From: an uncultured SAR86 cluster bacterium
GTDB taxonomy: Bacteria > Pseudomonadota > Gammaproteobacteria > Magnimaribacterales > AG-339-G14
Length of the DNA stretch: 64,000 bases
Direction: 5' to 3'
Assembly: GCA_902526045.1 (NCBI GenBank)
Contig: CABZJI010000002.1
Span: forward strand, 78,503 to 142,502
Part shown: in pieces, positions 53,497 to 57,359 of the stretch
Layout: the number at the start of each line of letters is the position of its first letter
How positions within the stretch are numbered: position 1 is the first letter of the stretch
The notes under the pieces: model-generated
Told to the model about the DNA's origin: nothing
Databases searched by the model: none
The model's input: only the letters and a program-made list of their open reading frames with translations
Program-made: the position numbers and the translations under genes

Positions 53497-54105
53497 TCAA
53501 TTTAAAGGGCTGGAATCTGGTTGAAAATCATAATAACCATCTACAGGGATCATGAGATGAGCATAAGGAGTTCCTTTAAACATTTGATAGGGCGCACCAG
53601 TTGTAAAATCTGTAGGGAAATTTTCAATGGTTTTTGTATCTTTCGGCATCAACATAAGATGAGCGCCAGACTCAATAAAGTGACCCATCATTTTAGCCTC
53701 ATCGTGATCGCCCCCATAGAAACTTGAATTCATATTATCTTCACCCATATCACCATTTAGCATCCAAATATAGGCATCTCTTTCCATGTTGGGTTTGCCA
53801 CCAGTCATGTAAGCTTCAGCCCATTTAAAACCTTCTTCATCGGCACAAAGGGTATTTCCATGTTGAGGTGTTTCGAATCCTCCTTCTGGCATTTCTAATG
53901 TGGCAGTACAGGTCCATCCATTTGATCCTTCTCTTATCACTTTACCGTCACCTCCAACAACTGTCGCAAATTCTCCGATAAAATCAGGCGCAGCTTTACT
54001 GTAAGCCCAAATTTGCCACTCTTCAGAATCATGGGCTACATTAGGTTCATCAGAAGTTGAACAAGAAATTAGGATTAAAAAAAGTACGCTAAACAAGTAT
54101 TTCAT
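53497..54105 (-). CDS. Uncharacterised lipoprotein (GSNGWTC / WMLxGD / AHLMIP family), copy 2
   Basis: Lipobox LISC, AAGGAG RBS; clear paralog of 54121-54732. Confidence 0.85.
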   Translation of the reverse strand: MKYLFSVLFLILISCSTSDEPNVAHDSEEWQIWAYSKAAPDFIGEFATVVGGDGKVIREGSNGWTCTATLEMPEGGFETPQHGNTLCADEEGFKWAEAYMTGGKPNMERDAYIWMLNGDMGEDNMNSSFYGGDHDEAKMMGHFIESGAHLMLMPKDTKTIENFPTDFTTGAPYQMFKGTPYAHLMIPVDGYYDFQPDSSPLN

Positions 54106-54120
54106 AATTACTCCTTTTAT

Positions 54121-54732
54121 TTAATTTGAAGGAGAGGATTCAGGCTGATATTTGTAGTAATCACCAACAGGAATCATTAAATGTGCCCATTTTGAGTCGG
54201 GAAACATAACATAGGGTTCTCCTCTGGTGAAATCAGCTGTGAAGTTCTTTAAAGTTTCAGGATCCTTTGGTACAACCATGAAGTGAGGACCAGACTCAAT
54301 AAACTGTCCTGGAGTTGAATCATTTTTTGAAAGAACTCCTGGAACTAAGTTATCTTCACCAACATCACCGTGAAGCATCCACATATAACCGTCTCTATCC
54401 ATATCAGGTTCGCTATTACTCATGAAGGCTGCCATCCATTTCATTGCCTCAGTATCAGAACAAGTAGGCATTGCCTGATGTGGATTATCCCATCCATTAG
54501 CAGGAAAAGGTCTGGGGTTACCGGACATACAAGTCCAACCATTTGAACCTTCTCTCAAAACTGAGCCATCACCACCCATCACAGTTGCGTAGTCTCCAAT
54601 ATAACTCGGAGCAGCAGTCGAATAAGCCCATACTTGCCACTCTGCAGAATTGTGGGGAGCGCTTGGTTCATCACTTACAGACTCTGAACAAGAGAACATA
54701 AAAACAAAAAACGCAAAAGCTATATATTTCAT
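54121..54732 (-). CDS. Uncharacterised lipoprotein (GSNGWTC / WMLxGD / AHLMIP family), copy 1
   Basis: Lipobox MFSC; shares HxSxEWQxWAYSxAAP, REGSNGWTC, FIESGxH and AHLMIPV with its neighbour. Confidence 0.85.
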   Translation of the reverse strand: MKYIAFAFFVFMFSCSESVSDEPSAPHNSAEWQVWAYSTAAPSYIGDYATVMGGDGSVLREGSNGWTCMSGNPRPFPANGWDNPHQAMPTCSDTEAMKWMAAFMSNSEPDMDRDGYMWMLHGDVGEDNLVPGVLSKNDSTPGQFIESGPHFMVVPKDPETLKNFTADFTRGEPYVMFPDSKWAHLMIPVGDYYKYQPESSPSN

Positions 54733-54832: not shown

Positions 54833-54866
54833 GCGGGCATCATATAATGACTATTAATTCAGCCTT
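54833..54866 (+). repeat. Degenerate copy of the 5' half of tRNA-Gly(TCC) (att-like direct repeat)
   Basis: gcgggcatcatataatgactattaattcagcctt versus tRNA 56139-56172 gcgggcatggtataatggctattacttcagcctt: 30/34 identical; the match stops in the anticodon loop. Confidence 0.9.
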
Positions 54867-54943
54867 AAAAGTTAAATCAATCCCCTGAAACCTCATAAAT
54901 AAGCATTCTTTTTCTGTCTGCTTGCTGTCTAATTAATACCTAT

Positions 54944-54978: not shown

Positions 54979-55191
54979 ATGAAAAAAATAATTTCATTCA
55001 CTTTTGTTACTTTTCTCGTTTCATGCGGCGGTAGCTCAAGTTCATCTGAACCTATCCAACAAAACAACATAGAAACCAATACACAGACCAATACTCAAAC
55101 TAATACACAAACTGAAACTGAAACTGAAACCGAAGAAGTGATAAAAGCTAATTTTGGTGAGGTTAAATTCGGTGAAGCTAAATTTGAATAG
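54979..55191 (+). CDS. Small lipoprotein with Thr-rich linker and C-terminal FGExK repeats
   Basis: MKKIISFTFVTFLVSC-GGSSSS lipobox, (TNTQ)3(TE)4 linker, ends ANFGEVKFGEAKFE. Confidence 0.8.
   Translation: MKKIISFTFVTFLVSCGGSSSSSEPIQQNNIETNTQTNTQTNTQTETETETEEVIKANFGEVKFGEAKFE
55075..55134 (+). repeat. Coding tandem repeats (12-nt x3, then 6-nt actgaa x4)
   Basis: accaatacacag/accaatactcaa/actaatacacaa followed by actgaa actgaa actgaa accgaa. Confidence 0.85.
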
Positions 55192-55200
55192 GAGATAACT

Positions 55201-56073
55201 ATGAGATTACTAACTATATTTTGTTTACTTTTTTCCTTTGGATTAACGGCAAAGGACTATAAATCGTTACAACGTTTAAACGAAGGTGATGTTATTTCTG
55301 CTGAAGTCTTTAACGACATGATGGATAGGATTGAATTAACTTTAAAAAATATAACTGAGAAAGACTTGATGGGAACTTGGGATTTGGTTCAAACTGTTTG
55401 TATCAGCGGCGTTCCTGGAAATTGTTCTCAGGGAAGTACACTAACAGGAAGACTTGACCCAATTGATGGTCTTTATTCTCAAAGATTAGATACGATAAAT
55501 TTCACTGATGATGGAGATGGAACATATTCTTTCCAACAAACTAACTATTGTTCTTTAACTAGAGGCGGGGATGTAAATGCTCCTTGCAACAAAAACTTTG
55601 CAATTGTCGACGGAAGAATAATCTTTCCTTCAGAAGGAAATTTAAGTGCTGCATACAATATGAAAAAAATTAGTAACAGTAGAATATTAATTTCAGAATA
55701 CTTTAATGGTTCTGCATCTTTTAATATTATTCGTCTAGATAAAAAAAATCTTCCACCCGAGCCACCTGCAAACTTATCTGTAACAAATTCTTCAGGAACC
55801 ATATCGCTTTCGTGGGATGCAGTGGACGTTGAAGAGACTGTTCTTGTTGATGGGACAACTTTTGTATCACAATCTGAAGGTGCCGCTAGTTCATATAAGA
55901 TTCAGTCTAAAGATGCAGCCCTTGGCACGTATACTGAGTTAGCAGCAGCTACATCGAATTCCTACACTGATACTATTCCGTCTGGCACCACTCGTTGGTA
56001 TCGTGTTTATGCTGTTAACGAATACGGAACCAGCAAAGGTTCTAATGTCGTGAGCATTAGTTATTCAGAATAG
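55201..56073 (+). CDS. Secreted protein with C-terminal fibronectin type III domain
   Basis: AGGAG RBS, signal peptide, N-terminal GDVISAEVFNDMMDRIE, central LMGTWDL; FN3 pattern PPANLSVT...LSWDAV...YTDT...YRVYAVNEYG. Confidence 0.82.
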   Translation: MRLLTIFCLLFSFGLTAKDYKSLQRLNEGDVISAEVFNDMMDRIELTLKNITEKDLMGTWDLVQTVCISGVPGNCSQGSTLTGRLDPIDGLYSQRLDTINFTDDGDGTYSFQQTNYCSLTRGGDVNAPCNKNFAIVDGRIIFPSEGNLSAAYNMKKISNSRILISEYFNGSASFNIIRLDKKNLPPEPPANLSVTNSSGTISLSWDAVDVEETVLVDGTTFVSQSEGAASSYKIQSKDAALGTYTELAAATSNSYTDTIPSGTTRWYRVYAVNEYGTSKGSNVVSISYSE

Positions 56074-56138: not shown

Positions 56139-56213
<75 letters not shown>

Positions 56214-56222
56214 CGAAATAAT

Positions 56223-57359
56223 ATGACTATCCAAAATAAAATAACAGAGAAAATAGAGCAAGAAAAAATACCTTTTGCTTCCTTTGCGGTTACTAATGAA
56301 CACGAAACAGTGCTACTTGAGCACTACGGAAGTCAACTCGAAGGAGAAGATAAACCACCTTCTAACAGCACAATTTACAGACTGGCTTCAATGACAAAAC
56401 CGATTGTTACTTTTGCAGCTCTTAAATGCGTTGAACTCGGGCTAATAGACTTAGATAAACCAGTTCATAATTTTCATTCTGATCTAAAGGATCTCGATGT
56501 TGGGAAGCTTCAAGATGGAAAAGTAATCTATGAAAAAGCGAATAAGGACATCACTCTTCATCATTTGCTAGCTCATACATCTGGATTTGCATATGATTTT
56601 CACGATCCTTTGCTTGCGCATCTTGCTCTGGAGGAGAAGATTGCTCCTCTTACAGATAAAGAAGGCAACTTCATTAATGTTCCTTTGTCATACCAACCTG
56701 ATACTAGATGGGAATATGGCGTTGGTCTTGATTGGGTTGGAGTAATTTTAGAAAAATTATTGAATAAAAACCTAGAAGAAATTTGTAGAGAATTTATCTT
56801 TGATCCACTTGGAATGAACGATACATCTTTCGATCCTGATTTTTTAGGGAAAGACAGATTGGCAGAGATGCATCTTATGGATAATGGAAACTTTATTCAT
56901 TCAACTGGACTTTTTGATGACTCTGTTCAGTCATTTTTTAGTGGCGGCGGTGGAATTCTTTCTAATCCATCTGATTATTGTAAATTTATGAGAATTTTTC
57001 TTTCAGATACAAATCCACTTTTATCTGATTCACTAATCTCTCTGATGACCACAAATCAAATCGGCGATTTAAATTATTCTTATCAACCCACGTTTAATCC
57101 TGTCTTGATTCATGGAAACGAATGGTTTCCGGAGATAAAGAAAAAATGGGGATACGGCTTTTTGATTAACGAAGAGGACATACCTAATAGAAGAAAAAAG
57201 GGATCTTTATCATGGTCAGGTATTTTCAATACTTATTTTTGGATTGATCCACAATCAAAAATTGCCGGTACCGTAATGATGCAATTGTCACCGCATTACG
57301 ACGAAAAATGTAAAGGTTTGCTAGAAGTAATGGAAAAAGCTGTTTATGAAGAGATTTGA
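56223..57359 (+). CDS. Serine hydrolase, beta-lactamase (EstB/LovD-like) family
   Basis: SxxK (ASMTKP), LLAHTSG, WEYG, PLGMNDT and WSGIFNTYFWIDP motifs. Start moved to MTIQ because the track start lies inside tRNA-Gly. Confidence 0.9.
   Translation: MTIQNKITEKIEQEKIPFASFAVTNEHETVLLEHYGSQLEGEDKPPSNSTIYRLASMTKPIVTFAALKCVELGLIDLDKPVHNFHSDLKDLDVGKLQDGKVIYEKANKDITLHHLLAHTSGFAYDFHDPLLAHLALEEKIAPLTDKEGNFINVPLSYQPDTRWEYGVGLDWVGVILEKLLNKNLEEICREFIFDPLGMNDTSFDPDFLGKDRLAEMHLMDNGNFIHSTGLFDDSVQSFFSGGGGILSNPSDYCKFMRIFLSDTNPLLSDSLISLMTTNQIGDLNYSYQPTFNPVLIHGNEWFPEIKKKWGYGFLINEEDIPNRRKKGSLSWSGIFNTYFWIDPQSKIAGTVMMQLSPHYDEKCKGLLEVMEKAVYEEI

Follow-up and report, generated by a model that had tools for sequence, protein, structure and literature searches.

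A conserved two-gene cassette in a SAR86 bacterium: an aromatic-tailed small lipoprotein, its exported partner and a candidate split tether

What can a lipoprotein do when, beyond its lipid anchor, it consists of a flexible spacer and a short peptide? This question is raised by a pair of genes in an uncultured SAR86 cluster bacterium (assembly GCA_902526045.1, contig CABZJI010000002.1), from which a stretch of 64,000 nucleotides (nt), positions 78,503 to 142,502 of the forward strand, was analysed; we call this stretch the window and use its numbering throughout. Between 54979 and 56073 on the plus strand, a gene for a 70-amino-acid (aa) lipoprotein that ends in three evenly spaced phenylalanines is followed by a gene for a 290-aa exported protein, hereafter the partner. 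The pairing of tail-bearing and partner genes is conserved far beyond chance, and suggests a hitherto undescribed means of holding proteins at the cell envelope. Few uncultured bacterial groups are as abundant in the surface ocean as SAR86, and its genomes, at about 1.2 Mb, should contain little that is dispensable.

A gene pair conserved far beyond chance

The partner sequence was used to search 266 genomes of the order to which the window belongs. Matches were found in 16 of them, the window's genome included, with a spread of 11 of the 15 other genomes of the genus, 14 of 49 in the family and 1 of 216 in the three other families. These matches correspond to 22 distinct places, often several in one genome and up to four matches per genome in relatives; in the window's own genome (1.2 Mb in 13 contigs, about 93% complete), a profile search for paralogues recovered only this one copy. 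At 20 of the 22 places an open reading frame (ORF) for a small tail-bearing lipoprotein is present on the same strand, just upstream of the partner gene or inside a partner cluster. At the L015 locus of the order, a 131-aa lipoprotein keeps two of the three aromatic tail positions in register.

The same arrangement was found in more distant taxa. In a collection of species-representative genomes the tail carrier ends 9–13 nt before the partner gene at 7 of 7 loci, which include a metagenome-assembled genome (MAG) of the Porticoccaceae, two MAGs of the Woeseiaceae and a high-GC groundwater deltaproteobacterial MAG. Metagenomes provided 80 further loci, 65 of which were testable, having at least 300 nt upstream of the match. 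A loose version of the tail pattern was matched by a frame ending at most 420 nt upstream at 53 of these 65 loci, against a background of 6 of 2,380 other frames in the same loci. The 53 include one locus (L099) where the pattern picked a spurious frame while a genuine carrier is present, and one (L091) whose carrier has 179 aa and an aliphatic tail. Inspection of the other 12 by eye revealed six variant tails (aliphatic for aromatic residues, two repeats, or an extra or altered last residue), four partner genes placed behind another partner gene of a tandem array, and two loci without a carrier. Of 401 genomes sampled evenly across the class, two contain the N-terminal module of the partner, one of them being the window's own genome. 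In the other, a 4.3-Mb gammaproteobacterium (G328), a 60-aa lipoprotein with a degenerate, aliphatic two-repeat tail lies 21 nt upstream of the partner. Close homologues come from SAR86-cluster genomes: one homologue is 73% identical to the partner, and a protein in its 90% cluster is assigned in NCBI nr to a 'SAR86 cluster bacterium'.

The original prediction, made from the letters of the window, had proposed an undescribed two-gene module and had named beforehand an observation that should overturn it, namely a lack of motif co-occurrence in other genomes. Co-occurrence is strongly positive in all three data sets (20/22, 7/7 and 53/65 loci), and the module is both genuine and undescribed: no description of the gene pair was found in open-access full text. 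Cassettes are present in at least five unrelated neighbourhoods without a third conserved gene. These include a peptide-transporter-like gene, acyl-CoA dehydrogenase and thioesterase genes and, in the window, HupE and a transfer RNA (tRNA) gene, tRNA-Gly (the names were read from translations without a search, except for HupE, which has a Pfam match). It follows that the pair moves as one unit.

The tail carrier and the partner protein

The tail-carrier gene occupies 54979–55191, stop included, and starts with an ATG at 54979. Its product begins with MKK, followed by a hydrophobic core and the lipobox LVSC (54979–55026), in which Cys16 is predicted to be lipidated and is followed by Gly at position +2. 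It is thus a predicted bacterial lipoprotein and signal peptidase (SPase) II substrate. The lipobox Cys and the next Gly are invariant in an alignment of 21 lipoproteins, and enzymes of the SPase II pathway are encoded in the same genome, with matches over the cut-off (Lgt, PF01790, E 2.2e-60; LspA, PF01252, E 1.1e-31). Residues 17–56 (55027–55146) form a low-complexity linker composed nearly solely of S, T, N, Q, E and G, and its DNA contains tandem repeats of period 12 (3.3 copies, 55073–55112) and period 6 (4.3 copies, 55109–55134). Linker lengths differ among orthologues. The T-N-T-Q unit is present three times in the window and four to five times in the orthologues of L003 and L002, and linker length therefore seems to drift by repeat slippage. 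Against Pfam and NCBIfam the lipoprotein gave no family above cut-off, the only matches being sub-threshold ones to signal peptides or low-complexity sequence. The first reading of this protein as a lipobox, a spacer with tandem repeats and a terminal tail, with no globular domain, agrees with these data.

The stop codon of this gene (TAG, 55189–55191) is separated by 9 nt from the ATG of the partner gene at 55201, as had been noted from the start, and an AGGAG ribosome-binding site (55190–55194) overlaps the stop and lies 6 nt before that ATG. The orthologous frame of locus L002 (L002:1261-1491) has no ATG, GTG or TTG start downstream of the preceding stop codon. With the ATT at 1261 as start, it would yield a normal lipoprotein signal peptide, which leaves a rare start codon or a recent loss.

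Among 95 unique carriers, 78 are small carriers by the lipobox pattern; a lipobox can be recognised by eye in a few of the other 17, and two entries are spurious frames. The mature length of the 78 ranges from 30 to 119 aa (median 50.5). Their linkers contain 18% S, 12.5% T, 11% N, 9.5% G and 8% Q, with 12.6% hydrophobic residues, and Gly occupies position +2 in 63 of them.

The tail itself, ANFGEVKFGEAKFE (55147–55188), carries Phe59, Phe64, Phe69 and the terminal Glu70, and the Phe at every fifth residue, three times over, first seen in this one protein proved to be a family feature. The last 12 residues align without gaps in 21 carriers, and the tail has the consensus F-[GED]-x-small-x-F-[GD]-x-small-x-F-[ENQ]-COOH. 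Among 66 unique tails (compared as 14-mers), the three periodic positions are Phe in 52, 51 and 49 cases, and otherwise Tyr, Leu or Ile. The first aromatic is followed by G, E or D in 63 tails and the second by G or D in 63, and small residues (S, A, G, C or T) stand two places ahead of both the second and the third aromatic. The last residue is E in 30 tails, N in 20, Q in 15 and R in one. Even where the partners have near-identical N-terminal segments, their tails differ from one another at each non-periodic position, and the last residue may be E, N or Q. The non-periodic positions thus vary freely, and the conserved parts are the aromatic pattern and the polar C-terminus. The 1.2-Mb genome has 15,932 stop-to-stop frames of 30 aa or more; a strict tail pattern matches just one of them, the lipoprotein of the window, and the loose pattern matches 20. 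The ANFGEVKFGEAKFE tail is not a chance pattern.

One class of paralogues has Cys at both small tail positions. In an exported protein, this suggests a cross-strand disulfide, and hence a hairpin in which these positions would face each other. The tail also recalls the pentapeptide-repeat proteins (PF00805) in its period of five, Phe at i being preceded by a small residue at i-2 (A-N-F-G-E / V-K-F-G-E / A-K-F-E). It differs from them in having only about 2.8 repeats, fewer than a single coil of the repeat fold requires, and PF00805 is absent among the Pfam matches of the lipoprotein at E≤1, so that it does not qualify as a pentapeptide-repeat protein.

The same tail, often with Leu or Ile in place of Phe, terminates large proteins with cadherin-like repeats (assigned by eye) at loci L033, L060, L061, L065, L067, L076 and L107. 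At all of these loci but L067, the position directly upstream of one or two partner genes is on record. The frames are L033:89-1255, L061:1-624, L065 (ending at 1884), L076:1-474 and L107 (ending at 384); the L060 frame ends before the first partner gene.

The partner gene (55201–56073, stop included; 87 homologues at E≤1e-3) encodes a Sec-exported protein. Its cleavable signal peptide, residues 1–18 (55201–55254), is of SPase I type by inspection, lacks a lipobox and is followed by LNEGDVISAEVFNDMMDRIE; no other hydrophobic segment is present. Searches of the whole protein against Pfam and NCBIfam gave nothing meaningful, with no threshold reached. An AlphaFold2 model built from a 52-sequence alignment (mean predicted local distance difference test score, pLDDT, 85.8) shows the signal helix, a helix at 34–48, strands through 58–181 and a second beta domain at 190–288. 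Residues 19–33 are conserved yet modelled with low confidence. Three parts can be delimited after the signal peptide: a conserved N-terminal segment, residues 19–57 (55255–55371), which reads DYKSLQRLNEGDVISAEVFNDMMDRIE... and includes helix 34–48; a predicted eight-stranded beta-barrel, residues 58–181 (55372–55743); and a linker with a fibronectin type III (FN3) domain, residues 182–290 (55744–56070).

When residues 19–185 were folded alone, an eight-stranded barrel was again obtained (pLDDT 87.3). With VIA-align the best match of this barrel is OlmO (7sfn_B, Z 8.0, root-mean-square deviation (rmsd) 3.3, 102 residues aligned). A Bacteroides lipocalin-like protein (4qrl_A, Z 7.7, rmsd 3.2, 89 aligned), potempin E (8ehd_A, Z 7.7, rmsd 3.0, 89 aligned) and ToxS (8u2f_B, Z 7.6, rmsd 3.4, 93 aligned) were also matched, together with dozens of lipocalin-like chains at Z 6–7.7. 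The best Foldseek match is the lipocalin 1n0s_A (E 1.1e-3), and a structure search of the ESM Atlas names PF13648, Lipocalin_4, at template-modelling (TM) scores of 0.50–0.54. The best ESM Atlas feature match is an unnamed cluster at 0.86, below the level treated as more than a lead. The invariant G-x-W at the first strand (G58 and W60 in all 52 sequences; in a 32-row paralogue alignment W is invariant and G present in at least 90% of rows) fits such a fold. The middle domain is therefore consistent with a lipocalin-like (calycin) barrel. Since the scores are in a range that the tool calls common, we use this term for the fold and claim no family membership; no Pfam lipocalin family was matched by the partner at E≤1.

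The C-terminal domain, residues 182–290, has FN3 topology (VIA-align, 7jgu_A, Z 13.8, rmsd 1.4, 86 aligned), with about 50 further FN3 chains at Z≥11.7 and FN3 matches by Foldseek as well. PF00041 is absent among the Pfam matches of the window's partner at E≤1, and its gathering threshold is not reached; it is precomputed for 4 of the 87 homologues, and paralogues score 17.6–28.1 bits against a cut-off of 25. The strands at 58–181 and this FN3 match bear out the early description of a Cys-containing, beta-rich domain followed by FN3.

Conservation is distributed unequally along the partner. Mean pairwise column identity is 0.65 in the N-terminal segment (0.87 for residues 29–38), 0.56 in FN3 and 0.38 in the barrel, which is the least conserved and most variable part, with 64 insertion columns in the family alignment. 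G29, D30, S33 and A34 are invariant among the homologues. The N-terminal segment and the barrel are the sole parts common to paralogues, which range from 188 to about 430 aa: some end after the barrel (188 and 213 aa), others add FN3, or FN3 and Big_5 (about 400 aa), and Big_5 or cadherin-like domains are found in partner paralogues. A profile of these two parts matched 418 representative clusters (50% identity) at E≤1e-3 among 1.84 billion representatives, 287 of them at E≤1e-10 and 41 at E≤1e-30; in the best 150 of the 418, the module starts within about 60 residues of the N-terminus. Among 232 proteins of the family, seven contain a lipobox-like string, only one of which looks true by eye, and none ends in the tail. 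Judged from the alignments, the tail and the GD-V-I-S-A...N segment of the partner are the two most conserved elements of the system.

A proposed split tether and its alternatives

How might two such proteins work together? Tail and N-terminal segment are inherited together across distant taxa while the rest changes, for which docking of one on the other is the simplest reading. Likewise, a partner without an anchor of its own, next to a carrier that has only an anchor, a spacer and a tail, is most simply read as one half of a tether. We therefore propose that the tail docks on the conserved N-terminal module of the partner and holds it at the membrane through the flexible linker, a proposal to which we give slightly less than even odds (about 0.45). 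The first gene would encode a pure anchor, in which a flexible linker of some 40 residues joins the lipidated Cys to a C-terminal tail of 12–14 residues. The second would be translated from the ribosome-binding site that overlaps the stop of the first, and its product exported by Sec as a soluble protein. Docking would be non-covalent, with residues 19–57 as the proposed site, and would keep the otherwise soluble partner on the membrane at the end of the linker. The functional end would be formed by the variable barrel together with the Ig-like domains, which would bind a ligand or a surface. In E. coli the residue after the lipidated Cys governs membrane sorting, Gly, as opposed to Asp, directing lipoproteins to the outer membrane. 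Because Gly follows the Cys here, the membrane would most likely be the outer one. While the anatomy, the adjacency and the conservation of the genes are read directly from the genomes and the folds are predicted, we infer the binding, its site, the membrane and the face on which the partner is displayed.

Some cassettes form tandem arrays in which one tail carrier is followed by two or three partner genes of different classes (L004, L009/L020/L027, L013/L022); at L008 a 108-aa partner fragment follows a full-length copy. The arrays suggest that one anchor type could serve several heads encoded in tandem, and the tails on large cadherin-like proteins suggest a portable docking element. Taken further, tail and N-terminal module could be a general, portable peptide-in-module docking system of the Gram-negative envelope, in which a C-terminal peptide of the form aromatic-x4-aromatic-x4-aromatic-[E/N/Q], folded as a small hairpin, plugs into a conserved GD-helix/calycin N-module and interchangeable, fast-evolving heads are mounted on lipoprotein anchors or on giant cadherin-like proteins. 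We consider this generalization somewhat unlikely; if true, one anchor gene could serve arrays of heads in streamlined marine bacteria.

Several observations weigh against the tether. A distant member of the family (L016), at a contig end and behind an unrelated membrane-protein gene, shows no carrier, and the partner gene also stands without one at 2 of the 65 testable metagenome loci. Fusions of anchor and partner, expected somewhere under a pure tether, are essentially unseen (at most one plausible case in 232). Position +2 is Asp or Glu in 5 of the 78 small carriers, and the membrane assignment is thus not uniform. The site of tail binding is a guess from conservation, and adjacency with co-conservation would also be expected if both proteins bound a third component, or were merely required together. 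Complex prediction with partner residues 19–290 (52 rows) and lipoprotein residues 31–70 (20 rows) scored 0.00 in two runs without controls, and speaks neither for nor against binding. As to joint expression, four marine metatranscriptome runs were examined as contigs. In run X15 two 151-nt contigs are identical to the partner gene (55294–55444 and 55450–55600), and run X16 has one contig with three differences (55235–55385). In run X17 a 388-nt contig from a relative (24 differences), covering 55036–55334, runs from the end of the lipoprotein gene through the spacer into the start of the partner gene. For expression and co-transcription these contigs are only a weak hint: depths are 2–3, DNA can be present in RNA libraries, and a contig over two genes is no proof of a single transcript. 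Stretches of the two genes left uncovered in the four runs carry no information.

The tail might instead act on the barrel, as a ligand, plug or regulator that occupies the calyx or completes the barrel, the two proteins then forming a co-component receptor of the VtrA/VtrC-ToxR/ToxS kind or an inhibitor-target pair in which the partner is kept inactive, or folded, until a signal or ligand displaces the tail. Calycin barrels bind hydrophobic ligands and the tail would supply three aromatic side chains; the rarity of anchor-partner fusions fits a reversible interaction; and the fold matches include ToxS and the barrel-shaped inhibitor potempin E, although their Z scores lie in the range that the tool calls common. 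According to PMC4933562, VtrC requires a strand from its operon partner. However, conservation within the partner is lowest in the barrel (0.38, 64 insertion columns), whereas the tail is nearly invariant across very different barrels, which speaks against a fit to the calyx, and neither protein has a transmembrane signalling or DNA-binding part. We regard this reading as improbable. A lower probability still attaches to linkage without mutual binding, in which the tail binds some other constituent of the envelope (for example peptidoglycan, an outer-membrane protein, or machinery for secretion or assembly) and the operon serves co-expression only. In its favour, what has been demonstrated is genetic linkage, the invariant terminal E, N or Q beside an aromatic resembles a C-terminal recognition signal readable by a machine, and the tail also ends large cadherin-like proteins. 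Nevertheless, at least five unrelated contexts share no third conserved gene, and the N-terminal module of the partner is the only constant companion of the tail, even in distant taxa with degenerate tails.

Two other explanations concern the origin of the partner and the nature of the small ORF. The original prediction had seen in the N-terminus of the partner an attachment or trimerisation segment of the phage tail-fibre type, with the aromatic repeats docking a trimer, and thus a phage-derived fibre or decoy. This kinship is not supported by the searches: residues 19–185, which include the N-terminal segment and the predicted lipocalin-like barrel, match no PHROG family at E≤1. The only PHROG matches fall in the FN3 domain (phrog_31, 'central tail fiber J', E 3.3e-5, residues 180–279), and this weak link to phage tail families concerns a ubiquitous domain. 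A tblastn search of 50,697 phage records gave as best result a chance match (E=1) to a microvirus replication gene, and a scan of viral contigs gave 11 pattern matches and no relatives. In the BFVD viral structure search lipocalin-like proteins are listed (best E 1.6e-3), and no fibre domain is listed there or among the PDB fold matches, although a family may be missing from such a list without being excluded. In principle the variable barrel could act as a variable head. The helix at 34–48, on the other hand, has only 15 residues, in our judgement too short for a coiled-coil stalk, and is followed by a lipocalin-like barrel of monomer type, while the cassette is chromosomal and set in varied housekeeping contexts. 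We regard a phage-fibre origin as very improbable. Finally, the small ORF might have no function as a protein and be an upstream leader or translational-coupling element under nucleotide constraint. It is short and of low complexity, its stop overlaps the ribosome-binding site of the partner, and its L002 orthologue has no ATG, GTG or TTG start. Yet the lipobox Cys and the tail are kept at the protein level across differing base compositions, including the high-GC deltaproteobacterial MAG, while the linker changes in length and sequence, and the tail also ends large multidomain proteins; we give this explanation hardly any credence.

To return to the proposed split tether, lipoprotein-mediated tethering is an established principle, and the lipocalin-like barrel and FN3 are ordinary folds. 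What appears to be new is the split architecture and the use of a conserved 12-residue aromatic tail as an apparent docking element. In the lipoprotein adaptors LpoA/LpoB, NlpI-Prc and LbcA-CtpA, a flexible N-terminal linker positions or holds a periplasmic partner. The cassette would resemble them as an outer-membrane lipoprotein that reaches its partner through a flexible linker, but they bind by a folded domain, whereas here only a peptide of 12–14 residues follows the linker. Bacterial lipocalin-like lipoproteins (Lipocalin_4, PF13648; DUF5004; outer-membrane lipocalins of the Blc type) share the barrel with its G-x-W start and the envelope location. They have a lipid anchor of their own; in the cassette the barrel protein has a plain signal peptide, the anchor being encoded by a gene of its own. 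In cohesin-dockerin and pilotin-secretin pairs, a conserved module on one protein recognises a small, portable docking element on the other. The docking proposed here would be a functional analogue, letting different cargo be mounted on an anchor, with no sequence or fold relation to either; binding in the cassette is a proposal, and the polarity of pilotin-secretin pairs is reversed, since the pilotin lipoprotein is the receptor.

The VtrA/VtrC and ToxR/ToxS pairs are likewise encoded by two adjacent, co-oriented genes, one product being an eight-stranded barrel of calycin type. The other product gives a short segment to this barrel (PMC4933562): in the bicistronic VtrA/VtrC pair, an open calycin barrel is closed by a strand that comes from the operon partner. 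Those proteins are inner-membrane proteins with transmembrane helices, and VtrA and ToxR have a cytoplasmic DNA-binding domain, in contrast to the lipoprotein carrier without a globular part and the soluble exported barrel protein with FN3 described here. We found no sequence similarity between the cassette and VtrA/VtrC or ToxR/ToxS. With a 70-aa carrier that has only a lipoprotein signal and a partner that has no transmembrane segment, the cassette does not belong to these co-component systems.

If the tail docks the partner, a lipid, a spacer and a 12-residue peptide would make a very economical envelope tether, the role of two families without a Pfam or NCBIfam model would be explained, and a short natural peptide-module pair would become available for reuse in surface display. 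It would also hint at what SAR86 cells bind with variable lipocalin-like heads, and bear on the capture of hydrophobic or polymeric substrates.

Surroundings of the cassette in the window

The GC content ranges from about 27 to 42% across the 14 kb around the two genes, and a scan for promoters and terminators gave nothing above shuffle expectation. Concerning envelope export, a search of the genome for Slam (PF04575), a surface-export factor, gave no match, which is uninformative, the control genomes being silent too; one secretin gene is present.

The cassette lies between a tRNA remnant and a tRNA. Just upstream, at 54834–54900, there is a degenerate copy of the 5′ part of tRNA-Gly(UCC), and the intact tRNA-Gly gene is located just downstream, at 56139–56213. 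The two have a mean column identity of 76%, the first 47 columns or so being nearly identical; neither ARAGORN nor Rfam (E≤1) calls a tRNA at the remnant. It may be the trace of a rearrangement or of an insertion at the tRNA. At the syntenic L002 locus, no such remnant was found in the stretch read.

Further upstream, the minus strand encodes two lipoproteins, tandem paralogues of 202 and 203 aa that belong to no Pfam or NCBIfam family (53497–54105 and 54121–54732); a single gene takes their place in the syntenic relative (L002). Downstream, the listed 391-aa ORF (56184–57359) begins inside the tRNA-Gly gene. It encodes a protein of the beta-lactamase family (PF00144, E 8.5e-50), the start of which is more likely the Met at 56226.

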